DNA of 34,297 bases from a virus. Taxonomy: Duplodnaviria; Caudoviricetes. The notes beneath the pieces were generated by a model. It saw only the letters and a program-made list of their open reading frames with translations. It had not been told where the DNA came from and ran no database searches. Every line of letters starts with the position of its first letter. Position 1 is the first letter of the stretch. The stretch covers positions 1-34,297 of the IMG/VR virus record IMGVR_UViG_3300010043_000002; one strand, 5' to 3'. The position numbers and the translations under genes are program-made. Below, one piece after another: positions 5,011-31,963 of this stretch.

Positions 5011-6089
5011 AAGCCTAGGATCTCTTTGTAATACTCTTCAAGGCTTTCTATAGCCTCGCGACACCTCCCATCTAGAGCGATGATGTATTTGCTCGTTTGA
5101 TCTTTTTTCCTGTGTCCCATGATCTTCTCGATTGAACTACGCCGGGCGCCGCTGTCTTCCATAATGGTTGCGGCCAGGTGTCGGATGTCATAGGGCACCC
5201 ATCCGCCAGGAACTCTATCGCCGTAGACTACGCCGGACAGCTCCCCGATAGATTCGGACGTCCGCTTAACTTTGTCCTTGCCTATCGTGAAATATCGGCC
5301 GGTTGAATTTTCCCGCTCCCGTAGTATCGCGATCGCCGTAGCTGATAGCGGTATCTCGCGCTCGCTTCCACCGCCCTTTTCCGATCGGATGACAACGCTC
5401 GAACGTTCAAGCCTTACTTGCTGGCTTGTCAGTTCAAGTATCTCGCCTCTGCGGGCGGACGTGAGGAGCATGAGCCTAAAGAGATCAAACAGCTCGCGAC
5501 GGTTGTTTAGACACTGTTGCCATTCGCCGGGCAAGCGCTCAATCAAGCAGGCCGAGAGTATTTTTGCGAAATCGTTTTTAGATATGAGATGAGATCGGCC
5601 GCGCGTGTCTGTCTCCCATTTCGCTTTTGGCGGCCGCCAGTCGTCAAGCTCTCTGAAATATTCGGGCGCCTTAGATAGCACGCCGAAAATGTAAGTCATA
5701 TAGCGGTTCATAGTCATAGGCTTTAGTTTTCTTTCGACAAGCGTAATCTTGAAGAGCTTCCAGTCGGCCCGCCCAAGTTGCCTAAGCATCGTATATTCGC
5801 CGCCTGTCGAATCTACGAATTGATCAAACATCTGAAGCGCCCGTTTCGAGACGTCGGGATCATTGACAACTTTCTTTCGCAGATCGCCGAGCGTGATCAT
5901 AGGCGCCGGTTTCATCAGCCCTAAACGCTCGGCCGCCGCGTTTGTCCTTAACTGCGCATAGGCGTCTTCCGCCTCTTGCCTTGTTTTGAATATAGCGGCC
6001 CGCGTGATGCGCTCTTTGCCGATCTTTCCAACGATGCGCCAGCGCCACTCATCCAAGTCTTTTCTGTATACAGATTCAAATTTCGCCAT
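4932..6089 (-). CDS. int: Tyrosine recombinase / phage integrase
   Basis: Catalytic motifs TSARRGEI (R), SEKGG (K), YDIRH (HxxR variant), MGH, TSKY; N-terminal arm-binding-like region. Confidence 0.9.
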   Translation of the reverse strand: MAKFESVYRKDLDEWRWRIVGKIGKERITRAAIFKTRQEAEDAYAQLRTNAAAERLGLMKPAPMITLGDLRKKVVNDPDVSKRALQMFDQFVDSTGGEYTMLRQLGRADWKLFKITLVERKLKPMTMNRYMTYIFGVLSKAPEYFRELDDWRPPKAKWETDTRGRSHLISKNDFAKILSACLIERLPGEWQQCLNNRRELFDLFRLMLLTSARRGEILELTSQQVRLERSSVVIRSEKGGGSEREIPLSATAIAILRERENSTGRYFTIGKDKVKRTSESIGELSGVVYGDRVPGGWVPYDIRHLAATIMEDSGARRSSIEKIMGHRKKDQTSKYIIALDGRCREAIESLEEYYKEILGLMSLFGPRLSETADKGCNPLISEIAA

Positions 6090-16733: not shown

Positions 16734-16902
16734 CGCGTAGAATGCCCCGCATTCGCGTTTAGAAGCCCGCCAGTAAATCTAAAAGAAAGCCCGCGACACT
16801 CCCCTATCGCGGGCTTCGTAGCGTTTGGTGAAAGTAAAGCTGAGGGTTGCAGTTCGAATTTGCGATTTTGACAAGACCCAAACTGGCAGCGAGACTATCT
16901 CA

Positions 16903-16969: not shown

Positions 16970-17527
16970 TCAATCGCGCGTAAAAACTACCACAGCGACA
17001 AGCCCAAGGCCAAGCAAAAGCAACAACGGAAGGCCCGACGACGACTGATCGCCATTTCCTAAACTCCCATTGGTTGTCTCGATGTAGCCATTCCCGCCAG
17101 TCGAGGCGGCGGGCGCCACTCCGGCCTGCGCCATGATCTGCGCCGCGTAGTTGCGCGCCGCCGCCGATACTGTCCCTCGCTGAACGTTCCCCTCGCCGCC
17201 GTTATAACCCTGGAGCGCTTTCGACATATCGCCGCCGAACAGGCCCAAGAGATAAGTCATGTACGCGCACCATGCGTCGAGCGACAGGTTTATATCGTAA
17301 GCGTTCGGATTTTGCGGCCCAGAGCCGAAGCGCGCCCATGTGTCGGGCGTGAATTGAGCGATCCCGCGTTCTTGGGCGCCGCCGACGTACTTGCCGAAAA
17401 TCACTGTCTGGTTGAAATTCGCCGACTCCCGCGCGAGCTGGACTAGAGCGATGTTCGGATTGATGCCGCAAGAGTTGGCCCTTTGAACGATCAGCGATTT
17501 GATTTCATCGGTAGTCATGCCCTTCAC
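16970..17527 (-). CDS. Lytic transglycosylase (SLT-like) with C-terminal membrane anchor
   Basis: ARES, GIAQF.P.TW, ALQGYNGGEG motifs; C-terminal LPLLLLLGLGLVAVVVF. Confidence 0.85.
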   Translation of the reverse strand: MKGMTTDEIKSLIVQRANSCGINPNIALVQLARESANFNQTVIFGKYVGGAQERGIAQFTPDTWARFGSGPQNPNAYDINLSLDAWCAYMTYLLGLFGGDMSKALQGYNGGEGNVQRGTVSAAARNYAAQIMAQAGVAPAASTGGNGYIETTNGSLGNGDQSSSGLPLLLLLGLGLVAVVVFTRD

Positions 17528-18117
17528 CTCTTAGCCAGAAAGATCACAGCGACTAAGGCGCCGGCGCCGAGAACCCAAAGCAAATTTGTTTGCGCCTGTT
17601 CTTCCGATGGCAGTAGCGGCGGGACATATGTCCTCTGCGTCCCGGTCACATCGGGCGTATCAGTCCCGACCGTGAAAGACAGGCCGCTATCAGATGGCGG
17701 ATTTACCGCGCCGGGCGGAGTGGCGGGCTGAGATGGAGATGGAACGTAATCGATCTGTACATCATCCTTGCGCGTGACGAGAACGAAGGGCAAAAGTTGA
17801 GATATGACCGCCGCCGCTGTATTTTGTATATCGGCCCTCGATAGAAAAGTCGCCATCGTTGACGCTTTGATCAGGATATATCCATCCGAAAACCATCCCG
17901 GCGCCGTGACACTGATTTCGGGATTGGTAAAGCCGCCGCCGCCACTAAACCATGACGCCAATGCGTTTTGGACGTACAGAACGGCATCCTGTGGATTATT
18001 GAGCTGGTCGGGCATGTTCGGATAGTAAACATTGGCCCATTTATACGCGAAGCCAACGCGGATGCGCGATCCGGCAATGACGGCGACATCTCCCATCAAT
18101 GTTGGGTATCTCGTCAT
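17524..18117 (-). CDS. Membrane-anchored virion protein, paralog 4
   Basis: N-terminal LMG..VIAGS.I.VGF; C-terminal TM followed by KR. Confidence 0.75.
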   Translation of the reverse strand: MTRYPTLMGDVAVIAGSRIRVGFAYKWANVYYPNMPDQLNNPQDAVLYVQNALASWFSGGGGFTNPEISVTAPGWFSDGYILIKASTMATFLSRADIQNTAAAVISQLLPFVLVTRKDDVQIDYVPSPSQPATPPGAVNPPSDSGLSFTVGTDTPDVTGTQRTYVPPLLPSEEQAQTNLLWVLGAGALVAVIFLAKR

Positions 18118-18120
18118 TTT

Positions 18121-18357
18121 TCACGCCCCTTCGCCCTTCTCTTCTTCCCACGCCCCGGAGATCGCGAACGAATGCCCATCCTCGCAAACAACCAGCAAAC
18201 AAGCGACGATCGCGATCTTGAAGCCTCCGGGCGCCGCCCACATTCCGCCCTTACCGCAATCGGGACAGCGAACCATGAAGCGGTCGAGATAGACGGGCTT
18301 GATCGTGATCGTTTCGCCCGCGTCAAGGCCAAGTTGTTTGCGAAGCCATGCCATCAT
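18121..18357 (-). CDS. Small zinc-finger protein
   Basis: CPDC and C...CEDGH; coupled to neighbours. Confidence 0.6.
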   Translation of the reverse strand: MMAWLRKQLGLDAGETITIKPVYLDRFMVRCPDCGKGGMWAAPGGFKIAIVACLLVVCEDGHSFAISGAWEEEKGEGA

Positions 18358-19517
18358 CAGAAATTGAATACTTCGATAAGACTTAAATTTTGTGTCACAT
18401 CGTTATTAGCTACGCCAATTCCTATAGTATTTAAACTTATTATACTGGTTGCAAAATTAAATACACCGCCACTCGTAAAATCCGCGTCCCAGTTAATATT
18501 ACCCATAAAAGACCCTTTGCCTGTATTTGTCCCGGAAAGATCAAATTTAGATACACCTACGAACAGAACAAAAGATAATATAAAAGTAGTTGCACTTTTC
18601 CTGACAATATCTCCAGTCATTCGCCAACCACCTGCAACTGTAAAGGCAAGGGAAGGCGGCGTACCATTGATAGGGACATTAGGGCTGACATCAATTATGT
18701 TGCCTGCAATTCCAGAGCCTGCGCCCCCATTAAAAATAAGTCCAATTCCTTTTGTATTAGTGTTCGGCGCCAATCCACCCGCCATCGTATAATGGGCATA
18801 ATCACCATTATTCCTTAAAGAATTTGCGGGTAAAACGTCAAGATGTAAAACCGTCGGCCCACTGCCGACGTTTCCAACCGTCGTTGTATTCGGCGGGAAC
18901 GCGCGCGGGATGCCGCTGAAATTCCCTATCGGCACATTGACGCCATTGATCCGGGCCATCAATTGATTGGTCGCGCTGTTGTACCAGAGATCGCCATTGA
19001 CGGGCGTTAAGGGATCGGGCGCTACCTGACCTACGTTGACGCCGGGGTTATTCGCGCCGGGGTTGAATATTTGACGCGCGTCGTTCTGATAACTAAATGT
19101 CAAACCATCTTCAATCAGAATGCTAGTATCGTCTAGAGCGTCAGTTGTAGCCGACCCCCATATAGATATTGAGTTCAATCTCGGCGCCCGATTCTGTTCA
19201 TACAACACGCCCGTCACATCGCCCACTCGAAGAAAAGACTCCCCATTGAGAGATTGAAAAAACGAATTCCCAAAGCGTGAGGTAGCGTCAGGGATGAGCG
19301 CGAGCGCGCCCGTTCCCGGCGCCGCCACAGAAGGCGGGACGGGCGGCGCGTCGAAGCGGAGCGCCTTGTCCTCGATATTATTCGTGATCGTCGAAAACAG
19401 CGCGTCATTCGTGATCCCGTTCGATCCGTCAGGGCCGAGACCGGGCCGCACGATGTACATCTCGTCTGTCGGTTGTGGCGCTGTTAGTTGCGGGAGTTCA
19501 GTAAGTTTCGCTGACAT
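18357..19517 (-). CDS. Spike/fibre-like receptor-binding protein candidate
   Basis: N-terminal KLTELP motif, GDLWYNS..NQL motif, G/N/T-rich beta composition; low-GC C-terminal part. Confidence 0.6.
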   Translation of the reverse strand: MSAKLTELPQLTAPQPTDEMYIVRPGLGPDGSNGITNDALFSTITNNIEDKALRFDAPPVPPSVAAPGTGALALIPDATSRFGNSFFQSLNGESFLRVGDVTGVLYEQNRAPRLNSISIWGSATTDALDDTSILIEDGLTFSYQNDARQIFNPGANNPGVNVGQVAPDPLTPVNGDLWYNSATNQLMARINGVNVPIGNFSGIPRAFPPNTTTVGNVGSGPTVLHLDVLPANSLRNNGDYAHYTMAGGLAPNTNTKGIGLIFNGGAGSGIAGNIIDVSPNVPINGTPPSLAFTVAGGWRMTGDIVRKSATTFILSFVLFVGVSKFDLSGTNTGKGSFMGNINWDADFTSGGVFNFATSIISLNTIGIGVANNDVTQNLSLIEVFNF

Positions 19518-19529
19518 AATCAGTATTCG

Positions 19530-19721
19530 CTACGCTGCGCTTTCAAGCTGTAGAAAGTCATTTCCCGTAGTGTCCGATTCAAGCAATAGCCCATCAAAGC
19601 CGGAAGTGTCGGATTCAAGCAATAGAATATCGGGCGGCGGCGACGGCGCGCCCCCGCCGCCCGGCTCACGCTTGTGAAACCATAATTCATCCGGCTGATG
19701 TCGCCGTTCCCAAGAAAGCAT
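19530..19721 (-). CDS. Small virion protein with LLLESD repeats
   Basis: GAGG RBS; LLLESD x2 plus LQLES, immediately upstream of the fibre-like gene. Confidence 0.6.
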   Translation of the reverse strand: MLSWERRHQPDELWFHKREPGGGGAPSPPPDILLLESDTSGFDGLLLESDTTGNDFLQLESAA

Positions 19722-19745
19722 TCAGACCTCGAATAAGACACAGCA

Positions 19746-20261
19746 TTACGTGTTGCGCCCGAACGCCAGGACTTCACCGGAGCCGATTTTATCCGCGATT
19801 TGCGATGAGATGTGATAGGAATAAACCGTCGTTCGGATGAATCGCGGATTGGCGTCAGGCGGCGCCGAGAGTATGCCTTGTAAAGTGATAGTCTCGGCGC
19901 CTCTAGCAATCAATAATTCATCAATGTCCACAAGGAGATGCGCCGGAACAAGAGGCGTGATTGAATCGGTTGAATTGGCCACCCAACGCAACGACCCGCC
20001 CGGAGGCGGTTCAAAGTTGCGGAAGCCCGGCGCCCCCGCGACATCGGTGAACACGTAACACTCGACGCGCAGGATTACCAGATACGGCGAAGCTTCGGGA
20101 ATCTGATATGAGGCCAGCACTTGTTCAGTTGGCAAATCAATCCATGTAAGCCGATTGCCAAACCTGACGGGCTTGATCTGATGCCAAAGCGTGATGGCCT
20201 CATCGAGCGTCGCCGGATAACAGGCGTCGACAAGCTCTTTCATGTGTTTGTTGATCAGCAT
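19746..20261 (-). CDS. Putative minor capsid/vertex protein (beta-rich)
   Basis: 171 aa; alternating hydrophobic beta pattern; position in the structural operon. Confidence 0.55.
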   Translation of the reverse strand: MLINKHMKELVDACYPATLDEAITLWHQIKPVRFGNRLTWIDLPTEQVLASYQIPEASPYLVILRVECYVFTDVAGAPGFRNFEPPPGGSLRWVANSTDSITPLVPAHLLVDIDELLIARGAETITLQGILSAPPDANPRFIRTTVYSYHISSQIADKIGSGEVLAFGRNT

Positions 20262-20267
20262 AGCGAT

Positions 20268-21275
20268 TCAATACTCACACAGTCTCACACCTCTATAAGT
20301 GATAACGCTCGAATCGAGGGGAATGTCAAAGAAAGCGTTTTGCAATATCGTTTGGAGTCGATGGCGCGATTTCAATAGATAGGGTTTAGTGAATGGCCGT
20401 CCCGGATTAGCGTCTCCTTGATTCCCAAAGATCGCCTGAGACGCCGTAAGGGCTGGCGTCCAAAAAGTCTGCTCGCCAGTGTCGCTTATTTTAGCTAAAA
20501 GGCGTTTGGTTACGTCTGTCGATGCGTTGCTGAAGGCGTCATGTATTTCAACGTCGCAATCATCGGACATCGTGAATTGCGTTACCTGATTGGCGCCGTC
20601 AATCTGAAAGTCGTCAATCCTGCGTGATTGATATTCACCTACGGGCATCGTCGCAAACCAGGGGAGCCGAGAGCCTACAGCGATAATTTCGCCGTTCGGC
20701 ATCACGACGCGCGATGGCGCTTTGAATCCGGGCGTGTTGTTGATCAATTGAACGCCGACAAATGTGAGCTTAACCGTTATCACAACGGGCGGGCCTACAA
20801 GATTCGCATTCAATACCGTCCAATCGAGTTTTAGCTTTGAATGCGCTGGCAGAAAAAAAGCTTCTGGCAGTCGAACAATCGGCATGGGAAAATTAAAGCC
20901 CCGCAATCCTATTCCCGCAAGGGCGGCTAGTGGTATGTAACCGATCCTTGTAGGCGTGGCCCAGGGTATCCCGCTTTCCTCATGCGTGATGTTGACATAC
21001 GTCCAATTTTCGGTAGCCACAGTCACGGATATAAACCAGGCGCTTGCGCCAATGATCAACACATCATACTGATTCGGCCTTGTGACCACCGTAACAAACG
21101 GAATTTCACCAGGGCTTTTGACGAGATCGACGCTCGTTGTCAGATACAAGGGAACTTGAATCGGATAATGATCCGCTATCGCTTCGGCGTAAGGCGTCCA
21201 GAAGGGTGAAGCGCCCCATGATGAGCCTACGAAATCACCTGTGGGTATTGCGCTATTTGTGGCTAGTTGATTCAT
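20268..21275 (-). CDS. Putative minor capsid protein (two beta-rich halves)
   Basis: Start 21275 by ATGA overlap; both halves end in similar motifs (LPEAFFLP..S.L...LTFVGVQL / FTKPYLL..R..L...ITYRGVRL). Confidence 0.6.
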   Translation of the reverse strand: MNQLATNSAIPTGDFVGSSWGASPFWTPYAEAIADHYPIQVPLYLTTSVDLVKSPGEIPFVTVVTRPNQYDVLIIGASAWFISVTVATENWTYVNITHEESGIPWATPTRIGYIPLAALAGIGLRGFNFPMPIVRLPEAFFLPAHSKLKLDWTVLNANLVGPPVVITVKLTFVGVQLINNTPGFKAPSRVVMPNGEIIAVGSRLPWFATMPVGEYQSRRIDDFQIDGANQVTQFTMSDDCDVEIHDAFSNASTDVTKRLLAKISDTGEQTFWTPALTASQAIFGNQGDANPGRPFTKPYLLKSRHRLQTILQNAFFDIPLDSSVITYRGVRLCEY

Positions 21276-21760
21276 GATCCGAAACCTACGCTGTAATCCC
21301 ATCCGCCGTTGATAGGATTTGTCAGTCTCAACGCGCGCCATGTCCATAGCCCGCCAGTTACCGGGATCAGTTGAGAGGGAATGAGAGCGGAGTTCGTGAA
21401 TTGCAATGCCAGCCTGCCCTGTCTACGCACAAAGAAGGGTTGAACTAATGGCAACACTGGCAGGACTTGACCGGAGACGCCAGCTAAGGCGTTTACGGGA
21501 GTGTCCTGTGGAGTTGGATTGTCGTTCGACATCCACTCATATTGTGGCGACACCGAGCGAATGCGAACAAGCACGGCGGGATTATTGAAATTAACCGTTG
21601 CGGCAAAAAATAAAACGTCTTCGCTGATTTCGTTTGTAAAAACTATTGGAGGCCGTTCATTCGCAACGCCTGTAAAGCCTATCGAGATCGTGTCGATTAA
21701 TTCAAGATGCGTCGCGTAGCGATCTAAAATCTGATACACATACTTAGTGAAAAAATACAT
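21272..21760 (-). CDS. Putative minor capsid protein (beta-rich)
   Basis: LAG..G...PV.PL.QPFFV..QGRL.L.FT motif shared with 20268-21275. Confidence 0.6.
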   Translation of the reverse strand: MYFFTKYVYQILDRYATHLELIDTISIGFTGVANERPPIVFTNEISEDVLFFAATVNFNNPAVLVRIRSVSPQYEWMSNDNPTPQDTPVNALAGVSGQVLPVLPLVQPFFVRRQGRLALQFTNSALIPSQLIPVTGGLWTWRALRLTNPINGGWDYSVGFGS

Positions 21761-21772
21761 CTCTTCTCTCCA

Positions 21773-22024
21773 TCATCCGCGCAGCCCGGAGCCGCGCGCC
21801 ATGCCGTAAACCTGCATGACGAGTTCATGCGTATCCATCTCTTTGTCGTAAGCTTCTTTCTCTTCTTCGGTGAAATGGATTGAATGGCCGTTACTGAGCG
21901 CCACGTCATAGCCGGGCGTGATCCAAAACGCGAAGCGGCGCCAGCCCGATGTGTCGCGCTTCTTGATCGCGACGACGTTGAGTATCGGCAAGCGATATCG
22001 GCCTATCTGTTTGATCGGATTCAC
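21773..22024 (-). CDS. Hypothetical protein
   Basis: GAGAGG RBS, GTG start; 83 aa. Confidence 0.65.
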   Translation of the reverse strand: MNPIKQIGRYRLPILNVVAIKKRDTSGWRRFAFWITPGYDVALSNGHSIHFTEEEKEAYDKEMDTHELVMQVYGMARGSGLRG

Positions 22025-22041
22025 GGCGGCGCCTCTCTTTC

Positions 22042-22082
22042 AAAAAATCCCGCGAGGCGAGCGCGCGGCCCGCCCCGCGAGT
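22042..22082 (-). terminator. Intrinsic terminator downstream of the capsid candidate
   Basis: Minus strand: CTCGCGGGGCGGGC...GCTCGCCTCGCGGG followed by ATTTTTT. Confidence 0.7.
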
Positions 22083-22233
22083 TCGATCACTTGCTAGCTC
22101 TGGCTTTGAAAGAGATCACTAGCTGCTATCTATTGATCGCATAAACTTTGTGCTAAAATACAAAACGGGCCGAACAAGTGTTGACGCACCTGTCGGCCCT
22201 CACCACAAAATTTTCTGTGTAGGAGAAAATCTC

Positions 22234-23130
22234 ATGGCTAAGACCTATCGTGTCATTCCTGCGCTTACCGCGCAAGACATCAAACGTTTTGAAAAATTTG
22301 TTGATCGTTCGCCCGGCCAGGGGCCGAACGGAGATTGCCATCAATGGCAAGGCTTCAGAAATCCTAAAGCCGGTCATGGAACATTCGGTCTTCATGACCG
22401 CGCATATCTGGCGCATCGCGTCGCTTACTTGATCTATCACGGCGAGATCGACCCGACGCTTCAAATCCTTCACAAGTGCGGCAATGGCGCCTGCGTTCGC
22501 AAGGAGCATTTGCGGCAAGGCGATCAATCTGAAAATTCCTTTGATGGATGGCGCTTCAGAAGAGAGAACATTGCTTACACGCCCGATCCCGATCACGTTC
22601 CCATCGGCAGACGCAAACCGCAGACAGTCGAGGAGCGTTTTTGGTCGTTTGTTGATAAGACGCCGGGACAAGGGCCGAATGGCGATTGCTGGATATGGAC
22701 AGCGGGCAAGCGAAAAGGTTATGGCGCATTCAATCGGCGCAAGGGCGAGATGTGGGACGCCCATCGCTTCTCTTACTACCTTGCGCATGGCCGCATCAAT
22801 AAATCCAAAGTCCTTCTTCACATTTGCGACAATCGAGCATGCGTCAATCCCGCTCACCTTAAACAAGGCACGCAGGCTGACAACCTGCGCGATATGCGCG
22901 ATAAAGGCCGCGATGCGAGAGGCATTAAGCATGGCAGTAAGACTCATCCCGAATCCGTTGTCAGAGGTGAGCAAGTGATTAACGCAAAGCTCACCGAAGA
23001 CCAAGTAAGAGAGATCAGACGCCTTGCTGATAGCGGCGTGAGTCACGGCGATATTGCGAAGCAATATGGAATGAGCCGCGCCGCTATCAGCATGATTGCT
23101 GAAAGAAAACGATGGAAACACGTTGTATGA
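22234..23130 (+). CDS. Free-standing homing endonuclease with two tandem HNH domains and a C-terminal HTH
   Basis: Two repeats of FVD..PGQGPNGDC..W...AHR..Y...HG.I....LH.C.N.ACV...HL.QG...N; AKLTE.QV.EIR tail; AGGAG RBS. Confidence 0.9.
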   Translation: MAKTYRVIPALTAQDIKRFEKFVDRSPGQGPNGDCHQWQGFRNPKAGHGTFGLHDRAYLAHRVAYLIYHGEIDPTLQILHKCGNGACVRKEHLRQGDQSENSFDGWRFRRENIAYTPDPDHVPIGRRKPQTVEERFWSFVDKTPGQGPNGDCWIWTAGKRKGYGAFNRRKGEMWDAHRFSYYLAHGRINKSKVLLHICDNRACVNPAHLKQGTQADNLRDMRDKGRDARGIKHGSKTHPESVVRGEQVINAKLTEDQVREIRRLADSGVSHGDIAKQYGMSRAAISMIAERKRWKHVV

Positions 23131-23162
23131 CGTGCTTCATGCTCTATATGCGGTATGCACTG

Positions 23163-23945
23163 TTAACCCGTGACCGGCTGTATGCCGATCCCGGCGAGTC
23201 CAACCCTGACGCGGACAGTGACGCCGGCGCCGATAGTGAAAGGATTTTGTACTTTCATCCTGACGCCGAATTTGGTCAGCTCTGGCAGATGGCGCATGAC
23301 CGGCATCTGATATGCCCATCCAACGCCGTTGTTAACCCATCCGTCCGGCAGCGCGCCGACATCTCCGCTTATTCCGTAAGCGCCCGCCGGAAAGCGCCAA
23401 CCAGGGCCGTCCTCAAAATTCGTTTGATTGACGAAGAGAACGAAGTAAGTACTTTCCTGAAAGGCCCGCATGAGGTTGCCCATGTTCTCGACGGGAGCGG
23501 TGATCCCCGGATTGAGGGCGAGGTTTAGGAAGTTCCCCGTCGTTTGAAGCGTGGCGTCTGGCGAAGCGACGATCGCGAACTGCACACTGATTTGCCAAAT
23601 CAACGCTTCGTAACCTTTGGCGAGCTGGCCGCCGCCGACTATCCACGGCGAGACGTCGATCTCTTGTTTCGAGTATGGCGTTCCGGCGATGAACAAGCTT
23701 TGCTGTTGGCCGAGCGCGTTTTGATAGAACACGAAATCGCGAACGGGCATCGCTCCCGGATCTATTCGCAGCGTGTCGTAGAGTTCGACGCCGGTTATTG
23801 AAGCGAGACGCCCGCCGTTGGCGGCGATGAATTGCGCGATCTGTTGATAATAGCTCGGATTGATTTGATCGAGCGTGGTAGGCAATCCCGGCATCGACGT
23901 ATTCGTGAAGCCGAAATTCGGAGGATTATCATAGAATCCTGGCAT
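23163..23945 (-). CDS. Candidate major capsid protein (jelly-roll-like, 260 aa)
   Basis: Strong RBS, beta-rich (LYDTLRI...FVFY...FGVRMKV...VRVRVGLAG), follows the core-protein gene, has a downstream terminator; no HK97 features seen; fold not verified. Confidence 0.55.
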   Translation of the reverse strand: MPGFYDNPPNFGFTNTSMPGLPTTLDQINPSYYQQIAQFIAANGGRLASITGVELYDTLRIDPGAMPVRDFVFYQNALGQQQSLFIAGTPYSKQEIDVSPWIVGGGQLAKGYEALIWQISVQFAIVASPDATLQTTGNFLNLALNPGITAPVENMGNLMRAFQESTYFVLFVNQTNFEDGPGWRFPAGAYGISGDVGALPDGWVNNGVGWAYQMPVMRHLPELTKFGVRMKVQNPFTIGAGVTVRVRVGLAGIGIQPVTG

Positions 23946-24034
23946 GGTGATTTTCTCCCATTCTTTCTTGAAGCTGTTTACCCTTCACGCGAGCGGCCCC
24001 ATGCCAAAGCCCTCGCGCGACTATCGAATTATCC

Positions 24035-24748
24035 TTAGTGGCCCCACACTCCGGGGCGCACGCCGAAACCCTGCATGCCATTGGCCGGATGCGCTGGCGC
24101 TGGCGGCGGCGGAACGATCAAGGGCGGTTGCCCTGTAGTGACGCCGATTCCCGCCATCCCTCGCGGGCGATAGCCAGACCACGGCCCCGACATCGTCGGC
24201 GCCGCCGCCGCAGTCACGCCTGCGAGCGTGCGAGATACAAACGGTTGAATGATCTGTATCACTGCGGTAGACAGGCCGAGAATGATCGTCGGCTGCGCGA
24301 ATCGTCTCGTCGCTCCGAACATATGGAACAATTTTCCGAGGCCCCAACCTGTCAAGGCTGTGATCGCGGGCGCGTTGAATTGGCCGAGCGGCAGAAAGCC
24401 TCCGATCAGTCTATTGACGAGCGGTTGCGCGATACCGAGGCCGAACCCGCCTATAGCGAAATTGAATATCTCGCCGCCTGATACCGCAGGATTGCGATGA
24501 TGGCGGCGATGGTGTCGCCGTCTAATCGGATTGGTACGGCGCGCTCGCGCGAATACTCCATAGCGATGATGGCGCCTCGTTCTGCGGCGGCGCCTGACAG
24601 GGTTGACCGGATTGAGAGGATTTTGGCGCCGAGCGTGAATGCGGCGCCTGCGTCTACGTGCTGGCATACTTCGTCTCCTTTTCGGATTGACCAACGCCAA
24701 AACCGAGGGCGCCGGATTGATTACTCTTCTACGGACAAGGCGAGTCAT
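24035..24748 (-). CDS. Arg-rich (protamine-like) N-terminus with hydrophobic segments; putative core/membrane protein
   Basis: GGAG RBS before 24748; poly-Arg/His with repeated NP, then hydrophobic helices and a Pro-rich tail. Confidence 0.8.
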   Translation of the reverse strand: MTRLVRRRVINPAPSVLALVNPKRRRSMPARRRRRRIHARRQNPLNPVNPVRRRRRTRRHHRYGVFARARRTNPIRRRHHRRHHRNPAVSGGEIFNFAIGGFGLGIAQPLVNRLIGGFLPLGQFNAPAITALTGWGLGKLFHMFGATRRFAQPTIILGLSTAVIQIIQPFVSRTLAGVTAAAAPTMSGPWSGYRPRGMAGIGVTTGQPPLIVPPPPAPAHPANGMQGFGVRPGVWGH

Positions 24749-24756
24749 ATAATTGA

Positions 24757-24807
24757 CTCCTTCTGCGTCATTGCGGTGAATAGCGGCGGCGACGCGATCC
24801 GACCGCA
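24757..24807 (-). repeat. Structured 5'-leader repeat, copy 2
   Basis: TGCGGTCGGATCGCGTCGCCGCCGCTA...CGCAATGACGCAGAAGGAG on the minus strand; similar to 25585-25633. Confidence 0.75.
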
Positions 24808-24927
24808 TAAAGTCATTAAACTGTTACAATTGAGGCTGATTTGTGATAGGATAGGGACAGCTTGGACGGAAGCGGCTAACTTTCGCCCAAGCCTAACCAC
24901 ATCATTCGTAATGGAGATACGAACAGC

Positions 24928-25554
24928 ATGGCTAAGTTCACTATACTCACTGAAAAACAATGCACCAAATGCAAAAAGATCAAGCCTGTTGAACTTTTTG
25001 AACCGCTTTACAAAAAGCCCGGCAAATTCACTTCTCATTGTCGTGACTGCCGTAATCGTGAAAGCTCTGCACGCTATAGACGCAAAAGAGCTGCTATGCC
25101 TAAGCGTCAGCGCATTGATACTAAGTGGAAGAAATGCGCCAGATGTAAAGAGGTAAAACTCCGATCTCAATTTCGTCGGAGAACTGATGGCCGACCCCAC
25201 CTTGTACAACCATATTGCAATGATTGTTTTCAAGGGACGCGCAGAGAAATCGGTAAGCGTTGGAGAGCGACGCCAAAAGGCAAGCGCAGAATGAGCCATT
25301 ACCATCTCAAGCGAGTGTTTGGCATTTCGATAGAAGACTTCGAAGTAATTCTTGATTGTCAGAATAACCAATGCCTGATATGCCTGAATCCATTTTCTAA
25401 AGAGAAAGGACGAAGGCCCAGTGTTGATCACTGCCACGCTACCGGAGTCATTCGAGGGGTCTTGTGCGCGTTCTGCAACGGCATGCTCGGCAAGGCGAAA
25501 GATGATCCCGCCTTTTTTAAGCGCGCTATTGAGTATTTGAAACGCGGTGGATAG
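24928..25554 (+). CDS. Endonuclease VII-family homing endonuclease with two N-terminal zinc modules
   Basis: KQCTKCK..KP...F repeats; Q...CLIC...VDHCH.TG.IRGVLC..CN..LG...DD......AIEYL. Confidence 0.9.
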   Translation: MAKFTILTEKQCTKCKKIKPVELFEPLYKKPGKFTSHCRDCRNRESSARYRRKRAAMPKRQRIDTKWKKCARCKEVKLRSQFRRRTDGRPHLVQPYCNDCFQGTRREIGKRWRATPKGKRRMSHYHLKRVFGISIEDFEVILDCQNNQCLICLNPFSKEKGRRPSVDHCHATGVIRGVLCAFCNGMLGKAKDDPAFFKRAIEYLKRGG

Positions 25555-25584
25555 TTTCCGTTTGACAAGCGGCATTGCTTATCT

Positions 25585-25633
25585 CTCTTTCTTGCGTCTT
25601 TGCGTTTAGCGGGCGGCGACGCGACCGACCGCA
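25585..25633 (-). repeat. Structured 5'-leader repeat, copy 1
   Basis: TGCGGTCGGTCGCGTCGCCGCCCGCTAAACGCAAAGACGCAAGAAAGAG on the minus strand. Confidence 0.75.
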
Positions 25634-25643
25634 AGCTCGTTAC

Positions 25644-26411
25644 TCACGCGCCGAGTGTCTTCTTGGCGCGCTCGAAATATTTTTCCCTATCGGCAAGCCC
25701 TGTATAACCGCCGTTGATCTTGTGCGTGATCTGTTTGAAATCGAGAGCGTCGGCAAGGTCATTGAGGCCATGCGATTTCCAGAAAGCGGCGGCGATGGTA
25801 AATGCATGCTCGGCCTTTTCGGCTAGCTCTGGATTCGAGATCAGATCGACGCCCAGAAGCTCGCCATACTTTTTGTAGTTCTCGCGGCCCGTGATCTGTA
25901 TCGGGCCTCGCCCCTTGAAGCGATGACCATCTCCCTTTTCAGTGTTGCCGAGATTCTTTGACAGTTCGGTGTGCGGTTCATACTTCTTTTGCTGATCGGT
26001 CGGCCCCCATATCTCAGCCATGTATTTCAGTTCGGCGGATTCGTGCGCGATCTGCGCGAGAAAGGCGGCGGCGCGTAAGGGCGTATTGATTTCGTGATCG
26101 ATCATCGCCTTGACGATGTGCGGCAGATATTCATCGCGCTTCGCGTCATGCAAATTCGGCATGATCGCCTTCAAATGAATGTCGGTTATGACGAAGGCAG
26201 GAGGCCCCGCATGACTGGTAGACTCCTGCCCCGGCGTCACGACGCCCACCTCGTCAGGCGCCGCGATCACAGCGACAACCGTATCGAAATCGAGATCATC
26301 AATTGCGGCGCCGCTCTCATCGGCTTGAATGAGCTTGGCGGCCCGCGCGCCCGATGACGCCGTGAACAGTCTTTCCGCTATTTGTTTTGCTTCGTCGCTT
26401 GTCATGGTCAA
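25644..26411 (-). CDS. Glycoside hydrolase family 19 (chitinase-like) endolysin
   Basis: AAFLAQIAHES, DG.RFKGRGPIQITGRENY, IT.KINGG..GL.DR. Confidence 0.92.
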   Translation of the reverse strand: MTMTSDEAKQIAERLFTASSGARAAKLIQADESGAAIDDLDFDTVVAVIAAPDEVGVVTPGQESTSHAGPPAFVITDIHLKAIMPNLHDAKRDEYLPHIVKAMIDHEINTPLRAAAFLAQIAHESAELKYMAEIWGPTDQQKKYEPHTELSKNLGNTEKGDGHRFKGRGPIQITGRENYKKYGELLGVDLISNPELAEKAEHAFTIAAAFWKSHGLNDLADALDFKQITHKINGGYTGLADREKYFERAKKTLGA

Positions 26412-27967
26412 TTTTCTAAACCTCGCGGCCCTATCCGATAGGCGCCGCCGCGAAATACAAGTCCGCCCTCGCCGTCCGCATGCAGCGTCGGCCGGCGTCC
26501 ATCCTCCTCGCCAACGTGATGGAAAAATATTGTTGGTTGCGTATGTCCTAAATGCTTTTTGACATCCAAATATTCAACCTTTGACACTTCGCCGAAGTTG
26601 CGTTTAGGGCCATCGTATAAGGGCGCGCCGTTGACCGATCCCAAATGCAATTTGCCTTTCGTATCACTACAGAGCCATGCCGAGCCGGCGACTGGTTTGA
26701 TAGTGCCTTCTTCCGTCGTGATGCTGACAAGCTTGCCGAGCTTCGCGAGACCCTGCGGAGTTCCATGTGGGAACCAGAGATCCCGCTCTCCAGAAACCGC
26801 GCCGGCGAACTCGCGACGGATCTCGGCGGGTGAAGGATTCCATTTCTTGTAGACTCGCGGCGCCGAGCTTTGACGACGACGCTTGCGCTCTGCGGCCACA
26901 CGTCGCCGGCCGCGCCCGCGCCATCCCATCGTGTCTGTAGCGCGGCGCGCAGTCGAATATTCATGGCGCATGCCTCTGCGCGTCGGATTGCGGCGCCTGG
27001 CGCTCGACGTGCGGCGCGTGGCTTTCTTCGTAGACTTGACTACTCGACTCGCGCGCTTGACGGTTTTCCGCTTAGGCGCCGCTCTCTTGACTGTCCGCCT
27101 GGCGCTCGCTTTCTTTGTTCTTTTCTTGGCGGACTTCTTGCGCTTGCGTCCTTCGCCAACCCGGCCCGGATCGTAGTCATATGACGCGCGTATGGGATGG
27201 AACACGCCCATATCATCGACAAAGCCGGCCGCCACATTGCTGCGCCGCTTGACGGTTCTCTTTGCGGCCCGGCGCGGCGCCGCTCTCTTTACCGATCTCT
27301 TAGGCGCCGCTCTTTTCACTGTCCGCCTGGCCGCCGCTCGCTTGACTGTCTTCTTGACTCTCTTCTTGACGGTTCTCTTTCGCTTGCGCGATTCGCCGGC
27401 CCTTCCGGGATCGTAGTCGTATGACGCGCGTATGGGATGGAACACGCCCATATCATCGACAAAGCCGGCCGCCACATTGCGTCGTCGTCTTCTCACTGTG
27501 TTTCGCTCCCTTTTCTCGTAGATATAACCAGTGTTGAGATCGAGGAAATCTTTTCCGCTGAGCTTCTGCGTCCCTTTTCCTTTCTTGTAATAGCGAATGC
27601 CGTATTTCCAGCCCTTGGGCGTTGACTCGGCTTGCTTCTTGATAACCAGATCGAAATATTTCGTCGTCCCGTCAGGATTCTTTTCGACCGAATAGCGATA
27701 GATATTTTTTGGGCCTGGCACTTTCCCTCTCACCTTTCGAATCGCAGAGCCGCGAGTAAACGCCGAGACAGTCTCACTGACGGTCTTTGTGTATTTCGGG
27801 ATCGCTTCAACCGTGTAAGACGGATTCGCCCTGGCCCGCACAGTCGCGGCCGCGATCCGTTTGGCTTCGCGCAATGAGGCGCCGCGTTCAAGTTCCGTTC
27901 GCAGGATGTGTTCATACTGGCGGTTCTGTTTGGCCGTCGCGCCCGCCAAGTGTTTTCGTCTTGGCAT
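26408..27967 (-). CDS. Highly basic modular DNA-condensing protein (histone H1-like KRAA repeats)
   Basis: RTVKRAAP repeats, duplicated NVAAGFVDDMGVFHPIRASYDYDPGR, globular C-terminal domain. Confidence 0.8.
   Translation of the reverse strand: MPRRKHLAGATAKQNRQYEHILRTELERGASLREAKRIAAATVRARANPSYTVEAIPKYTKTVSETVSAFTRGSAIRKVRGKVPGPKNIYRYSVEKNPDGTTKYFDLVIKKQAESTPKGWKYGIRYYKKGKGTQKLSGKDFLDLNTGYIYEKRERNTVRRRRRNVAAGFVDDMGVFHPIRASYDYDPGRAGESRKRKRTVKKRVKKTVKRAAARRTVKRAAPKRSVKRAAPRRAAKRTVKRRSNVAAGFVDDMGVFHPIRASYDYDPGRVGEGRKRKKSAKKRTKKASARRTVKRAAPKRKTVKRASRVVKSTKKATRRTSSARRRNPTRRGMRHEYSTARRATDTMGWRGRGRRRVAAERKRRRQSSAPRVYKKWNPSPAEIRREFAGAVSGERDLWFPHGTPQGLAKLGKLVSITTEEGTIKPVAGSAWLCSDTKGKLHLGSVNGAPLYDGPKRNFGEVSKVEYLDVKKHLGHTQPTIFFHHVGEEDGRRPTLHADGEGGLVFRGGAYRIGPRGLEN
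27168..27480. repeat. Intragenic tandem duplication, 240-bp period
   Basis: 27168-27240 and 27408-27480 are identical except for one synonymous base. Confidence 0.9.
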
Positions 27968-28443
27968 TACTTCTTTCTCCCGAACATCATGAAAAGCAGA
28001 AAGGCGCCGCCGCCTAGCACGACTAACTGCGCCGTGTTTTTAGAGACGCCAAAAGATGTAGCGATAGAATCGAAAAATCCCGTCTCTGTCCCGGTTGCGG
28101 TCGCCGGGACATAGGGCTGGAAAGCCAATTGAGCGGCGGCGCCGTTGATCGGAATGCCCGCCATCTGAAGGGCGCTTACCAATTGGCTGGCGAAGTCGCC
28201 GCCATTCGGCCAACTAGCCGTCGCCGTCCCGTCCACTCGCACGTAGGGCGTAGTGGCGCCGGTTGGAATCGTCGTCGTCACGTCATAGGCCCATCCGCCA
28301 TTGACTATCGCGTGAGTCACGGCGGCGGGATCAATGGTCGCGCCGGTCTCTATCGGGAATTGAAAGGCGAAAACCGAACCGCCCGCGAGCGCGCCCTGCG
28401 TCGCTACAGCGCCCATCAATTGGCGATAATGTGGATATGTCAT
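27967..28443 (-). CDS. Membrane-anchored virion protein, paralog 3
   Basis: LMGA.ATQG.LAGGS; GFFD.IATS.GV...TAQL; C-terminal TM followed by RKK. Confidence 0.8.
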   Translation of the reverse strand: MTYPHYRQLMGAVATQGALAGGSVFAFQFPIETGATIDPAAVTHAIVNGGWAYDVTTTIPTGATTPYVRVDGTATASWPNGGDFASQLVSALQMAGIPINGAAAQLAFQPYVPATATGTETGFFDSIATSFGVSKNTAQLVVLGGGAFLLFMMFGRKK

Positions 28444-28997
28444 TTCTTCCCCTTTCCGCCGCCTGTGGCCATCAGCACGATGAATAAACCGAATCCGCCG
28501 ATGATGAGTAATTGCGCCGTCCCGGTAGTGACGCCGAGAGAAGTAGCGATCTGATCAAAAAAGCCCTTTGGAGGCGGCTGCGTCGTCACTACGGGGGATT
28601 GCGTCCCTCCGGTCGGCGCGTATGGGACGAAAGTCAATTGCGCCGTTGACGCGTCAATCGGAAATCCAGCCACCGCGATGGCGTCGGCCAGGATGTTCGC
28701 GAAATCCTGCCCGCTCGAATAAGACGTAACCGCCGTGCCGGTCACTCGCACCTGCGGCGGCGCGCTCGCTCCCGCCGCTCCCATCACATAAGAGCCGAGA
28801 GGAACAGTGATCCAACCCGCGCTCTCAAGCGCGGGCGCTATGGCCGCTGGATCGAAGAGGAGCGTACCGTCTGCGGCGACGCTATCAGCGACGGCCATAA
28901 AATCGAATTGAATCGGAGAACCGCCCGCCAGTATTCCTTGCGTCGATGTCGCGCCTAATAGCCTTCTTGGGTAGCCGTAGCCGTAAAGACGTTTCAT
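28440..28997 (-). CDS. Membrane-anchored virion protein, paralog 2
   Basis: Start 28997 (TGATG overlap); clearly similar to 27967-28443. Confidence 0.8.
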   Translation of the reverse strand: MKRLYGYGYPRRLLGATSTQGILAGGSPIQFDFMAVADSVAADGTLLFDPAAIAPALESAGWITVPLGSYVMGAAGASAPPQVRVTGTAVTSYSSGQDFANILADAIAVAGFPIDASTAQLTFVPYAPTGGTQSPVVTTQPPPKGFFDQIATSLGVTTGTAQLLIIGGFGLFIVLMATGGGKGKK

Positions 28998-29638
28998 CAC
29001 TTTTTCACCAAAGCTAAAACAACTAGCAGGCCGACGCCTCCGACGATCAGGCCGCCCACTGTGCCCGCCGCGAGACCGCCTATAGGCGACTTGATGCCGA
29101 ACAGGCATGCGAAGTAATCGCCAAGGCCCATTGCGCTAAAATCGCATTGGGCAGGCGGTTGATTTTGATTCTGATTCGCCGCTTGATTCGTATATGGCGT
29201 GCCCTGCAATTGCGATCCCGGCGCCGTCCCATAAGGCGCGAATCGAAATTGAATCGTTGAATAGTCAATCGGATAACCGGCGTTTTTTATCGCTTGGTAG
29301 ATCTCCTCAGCGAACACCGTTGCGGACGGGTAAGAGGTTGTCGCATAGCCTGTAACCACGATGTACGGATTGACCACGCCTGCGGCCTTGTAGACATGAG
29401 TCGTATAGCTAAGGCCCAACTCCTCTTGAAGTAGGCGCTCGATTTCCGAAGGATCATACAACTTGAAAACGGTGTCGATGATTCCGGCGTTATAGCCGAA
29501 CTCAAAATAATTTCCGCCCGCCATCTCGCCTAAATTTTGCGGTATCGCGCCGAGCAGACCGGCGAGACCCCATGCCGGTTCAAATGCATTGCATCCGTCA
29601 TATCCACGCTGGCATCCCGCGCAGCATCCGCCGTTCAT
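28997..29638 (-). CDS. Membrane-anchored virion protein, paralog 1
   Basis: GGAGG RBS, ATGA overlap; LLGA...GEMAGG..FEF, PYIVVTG.ATTSY; C-terminal TM followed by KK. Confidence 0.8.
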   Translation of the reverse strand: MNGGCCAGCQRGYDGCNAFEPAWGLAGLLGAIPQNLGEMAGGNYFEFGYNAGIIDTVFKLYDPSEIERLLQEELGLSYTTHVYKAAGVVNPYIVVTGYATTSYPSATVFAEEIYQAIKNAGYPIDYSTIQFRFAPYGTAPGSQLQGTPYTNQAANQNQNQPPAQCDFSAMGLGDYFACLFGIKSPIGGLAAGTVGGLIVGGVGLLVVLALVKK

Positions 29639-30831
29639 GACGCCCTCCTGTGCCTGATGGTCGTTGCGTGGTCTCCATTGCCGCCGCTCAGGACAAGGAT
29701 GGCCAGGAGGCCGAGCCATAACCACCAGGGGATTTCGTCGAAGAATGACGCGCCCGATGGATTCGGCCCGCACACGCCGTTAAGCGTATTGAATGTGTAT
29801 CCGACCTGCGGACACTGCGGAATCAATTCACATCTGCGAGTCGCCGGATTCGACCAATAACCGACCGGACATCCGCCTCCCGCTACGCATGCCTCTGTCG
29901 TCGGATTGAAAACAGAGCCTGGATAGAGTTGCGCGCAGTTCGGAATCGGCATGCACCGCTGATATCGACGTGATTGATACTGCCCGGATGGGCATCCTTG
30001 TTGCGACGATGGCGGCGGTTGCTGTGGCGGTTTCGGCGCGGCGGCGGCCTGTTGCTGTTGCTGCGTCGTCGCTGGCGGGAAGGGCACGCATGAGTATGGA
30101 TCGTTTATCGGATGATAGTAGCCAGTCGGACAATAACCGGGAAGATTCGACCCGTAGGTCATGGGCGCGCTCGGCGCAGGCCCGAAGTCGATCAGAGGCG
30201 CCGGGAAAGTAAAATCCGGCAGCGGCGGAGTGTAGGGTATGGAGGGCGGAGTGGTTATATCCGGTAATGTGGGATTCCCCGGCTCCGTCTCCATCGGGAA
30301 TGTAAATTCTTGACCCGGAGGCACGGCGCCGAACTCTTCTTGAGGGCCATACGTCGGCCATCCTAAATCCGGTAACTGGTAGTAATCGGGCGGGACGGTT
30401 ACATCGGGCGTCGTTATATCGGGCGGCGCGGGCGGCGCGGGCGCGTATGGATCATATCCCGGATAACCTGTCGGTATGTCGTAGCCGAAACCGGGATCAT
30501 ATGAGGCGTCATACCCATAGTCATAGTATCCGGGATCGTAGAGAAAATCAGAGTATCCGCCGTAGTCATAACCGCCGCCGCCCCCGCCGCCAAAGTCGCC
30601 GTAATCGTAATAGTCATCGATAGCCAGAAGGCCGAGGCCCCGCGCGCGGTCGCGACTCCCTTTGTAGTATCTCGTCATCGCGCCCAACCCTCCGTTATGG
30701 CCAGAGGCGAAAAGCCAATCGGCGCCCGCGCGCTCGCATCTCTGCTCGCCCTCATTCCAGCGAAGCCCATGCGAGGCGCAATCCGGCAAAGAGCGCCAGC
30801 GGTTTTCCCTTTTGTCGAAATAGCGAGACAC
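29635..30831 (-). CDS. Tyr/Gly/Pro-rich protein with Cys repeats and a C-terminal membrane anchor
   Basis: CPTGYY, CPSGQY, CPVGYW, CPQVGYTF repeats; IPWWLWLGLLAILVL. Confidence 0.8.
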   Translation of the reverse strand: MSRYFDKRENRWRSLPDCASHGLRWNEGEQRCERAGADWLFASGHNGGLGAMTRYYKGSRDRARGLGLLAIDDYYDYGDFGGGGGGGYDYGGYSDFLYDPGYYDYGYDASYDPGFGYDIPTGYPGYDPYAPAPPAPPDITTPDVTVPPDYYQLPDLGWPTYGPQEEFGAVPPGQEFTFPMETEPGNPTLPDITTPPSIPYTPPLPDFTFPAPLIDFGPAPSAPMTYGSNLPGYCPTGYYHPINDPYSCVPFPPATTQQQQQAAAAPKPPQQPPPSSQQGCPSGQYQSRRYQRCMPIPNCAQLYPGSVFNPTTEACVAGGGCPVGYWSNPATRRCELIPQCPQVGYTFNTLNGVCGPNPSGASFFDEIPWWLWLGLLAILVLSGGNGDHATTIRHRRAS

Positions 30832-30835
30832 ACTG

Positions 30836-31117
30836 TCAATGCTTCCTTCCGCTGAAGATCAGCACTAGCGCGGCGATCCCTATTAGCCATAGCCCGGAGT
30901 TGCCAGTGAGAGAAAAGCCCGGTTGCCCTTGCCCGCTCGTTGCGTATGGATTCGTCTGATATGGCGTCCCGCCGCCGTATGGCGCATATCCCGGCGGGTA
31001 TCCAACATTGGTTGGCGCGTAGACATTCGTTCCCGGAGGGTAATAACCGGATTCGGCGACTTGAGCCGTTCGCGCCGCCGCTTGTATCGTATTGTTCGCG
31101 AAGTCCAACCAATCCAT
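30836..31117 (-). CDS. Small membrane-anchored protein
   Basis: GAGGAG RBS; Y/P/G-rich; C-terminal TM followed by RKH. Confidence 0.8.
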   Translation of the reverse strand: MDWLDFANNTIQAAARTAQVAESGYYPPGTNVYAPTNVGYPPGYAPYGGGTPYQTNPYATSGQGQPGFSLTGNSGLWLIGIAALVLIFSGRKH

Positions 31118-31127
31118 TTTTTACTCC

Positions 31128-31736
31128 TCAAAAAATCTCTTGCGATACTTCGAAGCCGCCTGTCTGTAGCGGTTGCCGATAGCCCATCGGCTCGCCGCTT
31201 GCGACCGCATCAAGCGCGATCCATGTTCCGTCTTCAAGCTCGGCCTCGACGTAGACATGCGAAGCCTCCCGGCCATCTACCCATTGAGCGACGAAGCGCG
31301 ATCGGATGCCGAGAGCGGCGAGCAGAGTCGCGAGCAGGACAGAGAGCGAGACGCAATCGCCCTCGCCTTTGAGCATTGTTCTTTTTGCGTCTTGCAATGT
31401 TTGTTCATTGAGCGGATGAGCGACGTATTGAATTTGATGCGCCGCGAAATCGAACAGGGCCGCTATCACATCCATGCGGGCATGTTGTGTTGCGCCGGAT
31501 GTGATGGCATGTGCGGCCCTGATGTTGAACTCGTCTTGATAACCGGAATATTCGGGCGCGAGACCGATCAGCACGGCGTCGCGCATGGCCGAGAGCGTGT
31601 CAAAGGTCGCGTCGTCGCCGGCCGGCAGCGCTCTATATTCGGTTGGATAGCTGATGGCGACGGGCGCGGGTGGTAGCGAGCTATTTGCATATTGAACGCC
31701 GCTTGCCGCCGTTTTAGTCGCGCCTTGTGTCGCCAT
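31128..31736 (-). CDS. Transglutaminase-like (papain-fold) Cys-His-Asp enzyme; putative protease
   Basis: GDCVSLSVLLATLL..LGI.SRFV, SHVYVE, WIALD. Confidence 0.85.
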   Translation of the reverse strand: MATQGATKTAASGVQYANSSLPPAPVAISYPTEYRALPAGDDATFDTLSAMRDAVLIGLAPEYSGYQDEFNIRAAHAITSGATQHARMDVIAALFDFAAHQIQYVAHPLNEQTLQDAKRTMLKGEGDCVSLSVLLATLLAALGIRSRFVAQWVDGREASHVYVEAELEDGTWIALDAVASGEPMGYRQPLQTGGFEVSQEIF

Positions 31737-31759
31737 AAAAGAAATTCCTTGCGGCGTGA

Positions 31760-31950: not shown

Positions 31951-31963
31951 CTAAGGAGTAGTA

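Follow-up and report, generated by a model that had tools for sequence, protein, structure and literature searches.

How does a virus with a closed genome fill its particles when it encodes no recognisable machine for doing so? The question is raised by IMG/VR record IMGVR_UViG_3300010043_000002, a DNA stretch of 34,297 nucleotides (nt) filed under Caudoviricetes and analysed here over its whole length ('the window'). A sequence-only reading had proposed a complete phage genome without terminase, portal, tail or packaging ATPase, a candidate new lineage of membrane-containing viruses reminiscent of the archaeal portoglobovirus SPV1. Our analysis points the same way. We favour, with a probability of about 0.72, a tailless and likely bacterial virus in which a predicted single-jelly-roll, likely membrane-lined shell forms around pre-condensed DNA; two very basic proteins would have compacted the DNA beforehand, making a packaging motor unnecessary. 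The lineage is real and was previously unrecognised.

Genome closure and the search for packaging genes

The genome is a free closed circle of 34,174 bp, as had been claimed. An exact 123-nt direct repeat stands at both ends of the window, and a contig of 12,747 nt that was assembled separately (labelled soil metagenome, possibly the same sample as the window; depth ~8, even) matches 30313-34297 and 1-8885 with zero mismatches and therefore spans the circle junction. Its double-stranded (ds) DNA nature is assumed from the DNA library and the gene content.

No terminase, portal, tail or packaging-ATPase family was found among 59 open reading frames (ORFs) of the window in Pfam and PHROGs, nor among 26 in NCBIfam. 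Two labels were weak and were set aside: PHROGs gave 'terminase small subunit' (E 0.0016) for the excisionase helix-turn-helix (HTH), and 'lytic tail protein' fell on the transglycosylase domain. A six-frame scan for Walker A motifs returned four matches: the AAA_25 helicase, a 376-amino-acid (aa) ORF at 161-1291 with a homolog in none of seven close relatives, and two shadow frames. The last three were judged not credible, which leaves the helicase as the window's only credible P-loop protein and agrees with the sequence-only reading on both counts. For three late proteins, comparison with 50,697 phage records gave no match.

The relatives give the same picture. Altogether 15 were identified, 13 of them with terminal repeats, in two clades of 28-40 kb and 18-24 kb. 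A capsid profile search retrieved eight IMG/VR records (six with terminal repeats, 34-40 kb), and two DNA patterns retrieved eight distant records of 17.7-23.9 kb, seven of which have terminal repeats; their capsids share 36-40% identity with that of the window. P-loops of the seven close relatives belong to primase-helicases or are scattered matches, none common to all; a Pfam scan of G001-G004 among these seven (G001-G007), covering 150 out of 314 ORFs with a length of 100 aa or more, detected no morphogenesis family. In 56 further loci with unchanged gene order (54 metagenome contigs plus L009 and L010), 974 frames contained eight Walker-like matches, located in basic proteins, shadow frames and one spike-slot ORF. 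The distant genomes contributed five such matches, all in ORFs of 55-102 aa beyond the conserved genes; no conserved ORF of the eight 18-24 kb genomes carries Walker A, and 126 ORFs from four of the eight gave lysozyme, transglutaminase, resolvase and fibre chaperone families in Pfam, with no ATPase. We found no Walker A gene common to all 16 genomes.

The 455-aa gene, divergent from the late operon, had been named as a place where a divergent terminase or ATPase might hide. The consensus of 72 of its 75 homologs shows no Walker A, the profile matched nothing meaningful in the PDB (one match at E 3.7 in a low-complexity stretch), and the Atlas offered no family and a poor model (pLDDT 0.48); the protein was thus rejected as an ATPase. 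It may be an assembly scaffold or a late regulator. The 109- and 128-aa genes behind it occur in seven and six of the seven close relatives, with matching slots in the distant genomes.

Predicted virion proteins

The 260-aa protein, suggested earlier as capsid candidate, was modelled by AlphaFold2 (pLDDT 82) as a single jelly roll and not as an HK97 fold, and its top VIA match is VP4 of SPV1. It is predicted to self-associate (0.73 against 0.00 for the best control, with contact agreement between runs of at least 82% and pLDDT at least 79); the threshold mark was attained by 20 out of 30 solved homo-pairs and by 1 of 23 single chains. Its status as major capsid protein is supported by several features of the gene: a GGAGA site in 7/7 genomes, the highest C3 among the four β-rich genes in 6/7, and a hairpin with T-run directly 3' of it in 6/6 close relatives (read by eye). 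In the window this hairpin is the strongest of 22, a total near the shuffle mean of 17.5. Moreover, this is the sole large capsid-type protein common to both clades. We identified 166 homologs in 87 clusters at 50% identity; none of the capsid genes has a PHROG or Pfam family, and look-alike clusters in the Atlas are mostly filed under Uroviricota. A FastTree phylogeny of 83 capsids unites both clades (support 0.99) within a broader family. Scans for the genomic context of deeper capsid clades (A4 and P0135) were empty, and two looser DNA patterns yielded seven new loci with zero family matches, a positive control being included.

The sequence-only reading had named related β-rich minor proteins and proposed comparing them, with the capsid candidate, to jelly-roll capsids. 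By profile, the 162- and 335-aa proteins are indeed related, and the 171-aa and 260-aa proteins are not detectably related to them. The folding check produced a single jelly roll for the 260-aa protein and a vertical double one for the 335-aa protein, whose model matches PRD1, STIV and PM2 capsids; homology to both halves of that model suggests a single jelly roll for the 162-aa protein. Since the 335-aa slot holds a single domain in the small clade (seven whole ORFs and one cut by a contig end), single and double jelly rolls appear from the models to have been interconverted within the lineage, in one direction or the other. Three pairs of 335-aa homologs (P0305/P0378, P0311/P0341 and P0318/P0369) come from contigs of equal length within each pair, which suggests that some genomes hold two double-jelly-roll paralogs.

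The 171-aa protein, matched between clades by HHalign at 99.7%, is a candidate penton or vertex protein, and the small product encoded next to it may be an adaptor. The 83-aa gene has no hidden Markov model (HMM) match in the eight distant genomes. The gene proposed as spike-like has homologs of up to 1291 aa, and its ortholog in the distant genome G010 has the fibre chaperone Peptidase_S74 at its end (E 6.6e-12), which fits that proposal.

Both proteins singled out earlier as very basic proved to be so, with the start of the smaller one most likely at 24748 (237 aa). The 519-aa protein is built as a mosaic whose modules have [RK]N[PVI] at their borders, has a conserved C-terminal domain, and may serve as nucleoprotein or core precursor. 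The 237-aa gene lies directly upstream of the capsid gene in 15/15 relatives; its product could be a DNA-to-membrane tether or a core protein. Asn-Pro occurs at 80/284 and 87/164 Asn in the two (14 proteins per family), against maxima of 25 and 29 in 1000 shuffles. In addition, G[ML]xG[IVF][GA], a motif resembling the adenovirus protease site, is found in 14/14 small basic proteins (counted without shuffle control). The transglutaminase-like enzyme has an intact Cys-His-Asp triad, invariant in 7/7 aligned sequences and with its motifs in 8/8 distant genomes. The odds that it acts as a maturation protease on the core precursors appear to us evenly balanced. Alternatively, it may cross-link proteins, or Asn-Pro may be a DNA-binding turn of the SPKK kind.

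At least seven late proteins had been credited with C-terminal anchors, and seven were found (KD19 1.67-2.54); a C-terminal hydrophobic stretch is also present in 12/12 proteins checked in distant genomes, and the number of anchored paralogs differs among genomes. Many of these proteins (17524-18117, 27967-29638 and relatives) have a short leader at their start whose last residues are L(M/L)G or GLG; this may be a further processing site. The first ~50 aa of the Pro/Tyr/Cys-rich protein match a separate membrane gene of 55-67 aa in relatives; here the anchor of that small gene is missing and the frame runs into the next gene. The anchored transglycosylase is likely a virion entry enzyme.

The capsid, 83-, 162-, 335- and 171-aa genes, both basic proteins, transglutaminase, transglycosylase and 455-aa gene are present in 7/7 close relatives, as are two families of anchored proteins. 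The distant genomes keep the order of 455-aa gene, transglutaminase, anchored and basic proteins, capsid, minor genes and spike.

Proposed assembly and its alternatives

These genes suggest the following course. Tail-anchored proteins would gather in a patch of host membrane, where the 519-aa protein would condense the circular DNA and the 237-aa protein would tie it to the membrane. Oligomers of the capsid protein (hexamers, if it behaves as VP4 of SPV1 does) would then curve and close the patch, the vertices being occupied by the 162-, 335- and 171-aa proteins and the spike. Maturation would fall to the transglutaminase-like enzyme, probably as a protease that cleaves the core precursors at their recurring motifs, otherwise as a cross-linker. 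Finally, the endolysin would free the particles, and the anchored transglycosylase would open the cell wall at entry. All of these steps are inferred, and so are the internal membrane, the nucleoprotein-first order and lysogeny.

Several points weigh against it. The virion is known here from genes and models alone, and the 455-aa core protein is without a reliable model. A host ATPase or a motor without P-loop could still do the work. The complex model used four copies, for which calibration differed, and gave one confident pair, a hexamer being outside its scope. Most of the ~69 full-length capsid representatives come without genomic context. CheckV rates the small circles as 14-26% complete; we read this as reference bias, because their content is the same although the circles are permuted.

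A tailless particle with another shell is unlikely. Either the 260- and 162-aa proteins would build a two-protein shell, as in halopaniviruses, or the 335-aa double jelly roll would be the main capsomer. The 162-aa protein is as conserved as the 260-aa protein, their sizes suit such a pair, and the capsids matched by the 335-aa model speak for the second variant. On the other hand, both genes lie behind the terminator, and that for the 335-aa protein lacks a clear Shine-Dalgarno site and overlaps the stop of the 162-aa gene; this weak position for expression, the lower conservation (0.47) and the single domain in the small clade make it an unlikely major capsid protein. We regard as quite unlikely that a host translocase or a non-P-loop motor, such as the 455-aa protein, pumps DNA into a preformed procapsid. 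Genomes of 34-40 kb are large for motor-free packaging (SPV1 has ~20 kb, PMC8459092), and the unexplained 455-aa gene is kept in 15/15 relatives, but no NTPase motif or family was found in its product, the two large basic core proteins are what condensation before assembly predicts, and P-loop ATPases are readily detected by motifs, according to the part of PMC5894146 available to us.

The membrane proteins might instead form an outer envelope, or a platform in the host membrane for assembly or entry, with the shell inside or naked. Tail anchors by themselves give no topology and the paralog number varies; nevertheless, we hold this to be very unlikely, as the closest folds (SPV1, P23-77, HHIV-2, PRD1, STIV) all come from inner-membrane viruses and the capsid genes are followed by those for vertex and spike. 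That the element is a satellite using helper virions, or a plasmid-like element with a non-infectious compartment, had been raised as a possible refutation. The missing motor would suit it, as would a broken-looking transglutaminase/capsid cassette in the bacterial contig G240 (see below); we find it scarcely credible in view of a genome with capsid, spike, lysis and replication genes of its own, and these, with integration genes, recur in two clades of free circles.

Other genes, host and place among known viruses

Starting at 31736, the late operon occupies the minus strand as far as a terminator at 16817 (Table 1); two homing endonuclease genes (HNH and endonuclease VII types) and the GH19 endolysin also lie within it. 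The two endonucleases, on the opposite strand, flank the capsid and basic genes; their slots are occupied in some relatives (L035, L036, L048, L049, G005 and G006).

Table 1 Features of the window (strand as in the record; roles of virion proteins are predictions)
Feature	Position	Strand	Details
Terminal direct repeat	1..123	.	copy at 34175-34297; marks 34,174-bp circle
GAACACTAAACGGAGA leader copies	232-256, 1313-1353, 1658-1698, 2122-2162, 2681-2705, 2968-3017, 14212-14236		
Tyrosine integrase	4932..6089	-	PF00589 E 4.9e-14
RHH regulator	7280-7636		
Excisionase-like HTH	8390-8701		
AAA_25 (RecA-fold) replicative helicase	10833..12107	+	PF13481 E 4e-24
Serine resolvase	15328-16017		
Terminator-like hairpin closing late operon	16786..16817	-	13 pairs and T-run
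Lytic transglycosylase (SLT), C-terminal membrane anchor	16970..17527	-	PF01464 E 4.4e-9; 7/7 close relatives; KD 2.54
Tail-anchored protein	17524..18117	-	paralog of 27967-29638 set
Small CxxC/CxxH protein with hydrophobic stretch	18121..18357	-	4/7 relatives
Putative spike or receptor-binding fibre, variable slot	18357..19517	-	homologs in 6/7 close, 8/8 distant relatives
Small conserved protein, gene flanked by those for 171-aa protein and spike	19530..19721	-	5/7 close; cluster in 8/8 distant
171-aa β-rich protein	19746..20261	-	7/7 close and 8/8 distant; always adjoins spike slot
335-aa putative minor capsid protein, predicted vertical double jelly roll	20268..21275	-	two 162-aa-type domains
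162-aa putative minor capsid protein, single-jelly-roll type	21272..21760	-	15/15 relatives
83-aa conserved gene of large clade	21773..22024	-	7/7 close relatives
Terminator-like hairpin behind major capsid gene	22049..22081	-	14 pairs; HNH inserted between
HNH homing endonuclease, inserted	22150..23130	+	PF13392 E 1.8e-20; same slot in L035, L036
260-aa putative major capsid protein	23163..23945	-	predicted single jelly roll, N-terminal arm and helix
237-aa basic protein, net +40	24035..24748	-	Arg-rich Asn-Pro-repeat N-half, hydrophobic C-half
Endonuclease VII-type homing endonuclease, inserted	24928..25554	+	PF02945 E 3.3e-22
GH19 endolysin	25644..26411	-	0/7 complete or near-complete relatives; present in L027
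519-aa very basic modular protein, net +92	26408..27967	-	15/15 relatives
Three paralogous tail-anchored membrane proteins	27967..29638	-	158, 185, 213 aa
Pro/Tyr/Cys-rich tail-anchored protein	29635..30831	-	
93-aa tail-anchored protein	30836..31117	-	
Transglutaminase-like enzyme, first late-operon gene	31128..31736	-	PF01841 E 1.2e-14
455-aa core gene	31964..33331	+	divergent from late operon; 15/15 relatives
Two small conserved genes, 109 and 128 aa	33528..34209	+	behind 455-aa gene

The early half encodes a tyrosine integrase, excisionase-like and ribbon-helix-helix (RHH) regulators, the helicase, a ParB-methyltransferase, HicAB and a resolvase (Pfam, PHROGs). A 40-bp inverted repeat (12135-12216, 95% complementary) lies within an AT-rich stretch at the end of the helicase gene, and 9 of the window's 11 copies of TGTCACA/TGTGACA fall in 12071-12289, likely the replication origin. 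An origin is more likely than a protelomerase site, as the genome has no protelomerase gene, or an RNA gene, as the Rfam miRNA match stays under the gathering score. Many small early genes are preceded by a repeated leader with the end GAACACTAAACGGAGA, which resembles a common promoter/ribosome-binding-site cassette and may also have aided gene shuffling. Several relatives carry a second short tyrosine recombinase after the late operon (L016:5168-5719, L013:10933-11586, L011:6034-6627), where the window has the serine resolvase; this slot probably serves circle-dimer resolution. A DnaJ-domain protein stands among the replication genes of G003 and G004 (L015:14285-15187, L017:10456-11523), with homologs in G005 and G006. 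Neither a tRNA nor an attachment site was identified in the window.

Peptidoglycan enzymes (SLT and GH19 in the window, GH24 also in the lineage) point to bacteria as likely hosts. One 21.7-kb contig of the lineage occurs in a metagenome-assembled genome (MAG) of Blastocatellia, and a scan of 185,579 species genomes returned one 4.7-kb contig, in a Pseudomonadota MAG, so that more than one host phylum comes into question. Integrase and excisionase homologs occur in 5/7 close relatives, the integrase in 0/8 distant ones; integrase matches in plasmids are weak and no integrated copy of either clade was found. The window's clade is likely temperate, judging from these genes. Among ordinary bacterial genes of G240, a 45-kb contig, we noticed a very distant cassette (L110:7466-11916) with homologs of the transglutaminase (E 2.8e-15) and of a shortened capsid (E 4.6e-10), the large basic protein's C-terminal domain, an LMIVNP-motif protein and two genes of β-rich appearance. 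The 20 kb read showed neither anchors nor lysis genes nor an integrase; our reading is a decayed provirus or a domesticated shell.

We found no description of the lineage in the literature; subscription papers and supplements were beyond the scope of the search, and supplementary tables of virome studies might hide members. The available part of bioRxiv 2025.08.03.668216 is unrelated. Marker-based tools miss such viruses, given the absence of a capsid family, the Uroviricota filing and the low completeness scores on closed circles. The only other examples of the SPV1 design found in the literature are Portogloboviridae; a lineage in bacteria, counting at least 87 capsid clusters and with 18-40 kb genomes, would extend it over two domains and to twice the SPV1 genome size. 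A motor-free virion with one single-jelly-roll protein has been proposed as ancestral to Singelaviria, and SPV1, with one single jelly roll and no ATPase, is placed near the helvetiavirus ancestral state in the portion of PMC8812541 accessible to us. Single and double jelly rolls in one gene slot, with similarity still detectable, bear on the origin of the double jelly roll. We suggest only tentatively, and with less than even confidence, that this is a widespread, order-level bacterial group that has kept the ancestral motor-free virion, with a DNA-condensing core matured by a transglutaminase-fold protease and an independently fused, PRD1-like double jelly roll. If so, it would exemplify, in living viruses, the debated origin of Varidnaviria capsids by fusion.

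Among known viruses, those of Caudoviricetes are set apart by HK97-fold capsid, portal, terminase and tail, none of which was found here. Tectiviridae, Corticoviridae and Turriviridae (PRD1, PM2, STIV) share the fold of the 335-aa protein, and the membrane-anchored transglycosylase parallels PRD1 P7. As in the other Varidnaviria considered here (Odin group and FLiP), however, their major capsid protein is the double jelly roll, and they have a packaging ATPase; in the window this fold is weakly placed for expression. Motor-free tailless prokaryotic viruses are already known with another capsid: the Odin group and FLiP, which have double-jelly-roll capsids and no packaging ATPase as far as the accessible text of PMC5894146 goes. 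Their genomes are small, that of FLiP being single-stranded DNA, and their double jelly roll is the major protein, whereas here it is a minor one and missing in one clade. Halopanivirales (P23-77, SH1, HHIV-2, HCIV-1; Helvetiavirae, in Singelaviria as defined in the available part of PMC12714852) build their capsids from two major proteins and encode an FtsK-HerA ATPase, according to the same portion of PMC8812541. No such ATPase was matched in the window. For their two paralogous single jelly rolls it may have a counterpart in its second, conserved one of 162 aa, which lies behind the terminator and has no profile match to the 260-aa protein.

Portogloboviridae, a two-species family (PMC8459092) infecting archaea of hot springs, come closest. 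SPV1 and the window share a circular dsDNA genome, one single-jelly-roll major capsid protein (VP4-like here, on the model) and the lack of a packaging ATPase (for SPV1, from the accessible part of PMC8812541). The basic core and membrane genes, in the window known as genes alone, fit the nucleoprotein and inner lipid layer of SPV1 (PMC8459092), and the sister clade of 18-24 kb has SPV1-like genomes, unlike the 34-kb window. The capsid protein has 260 aa here and ~180 aa in SPV1, and the two viruses show no sequence similarity. Of the SPV1 shell, with its hexameric capsomers, T=43 and pentameric single-jelly-roll penton, the part addressed here is self-association of the capsid protein, which is predicted. 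The window adds a transglutaminase-like enzyme, a double-jelly-roll minor protein, lysis enzymes (SLT, GH19), helicase and integrase; SPV1 is non-lytic, has no recognisable replication gene and infects Saccharolobus (Sulfolobales), whereas the host here would be bacterial. The portoglobovirus-like virus without a motor proposed at the outset thus stands as regards the capsid model and the absent ATPase, the membrane and the nucleoprotein-first assembly being probable features only. Our best reading is a lineage that works like Portogloboviridae without being a member, set apart by host, lysis genes and genome size.

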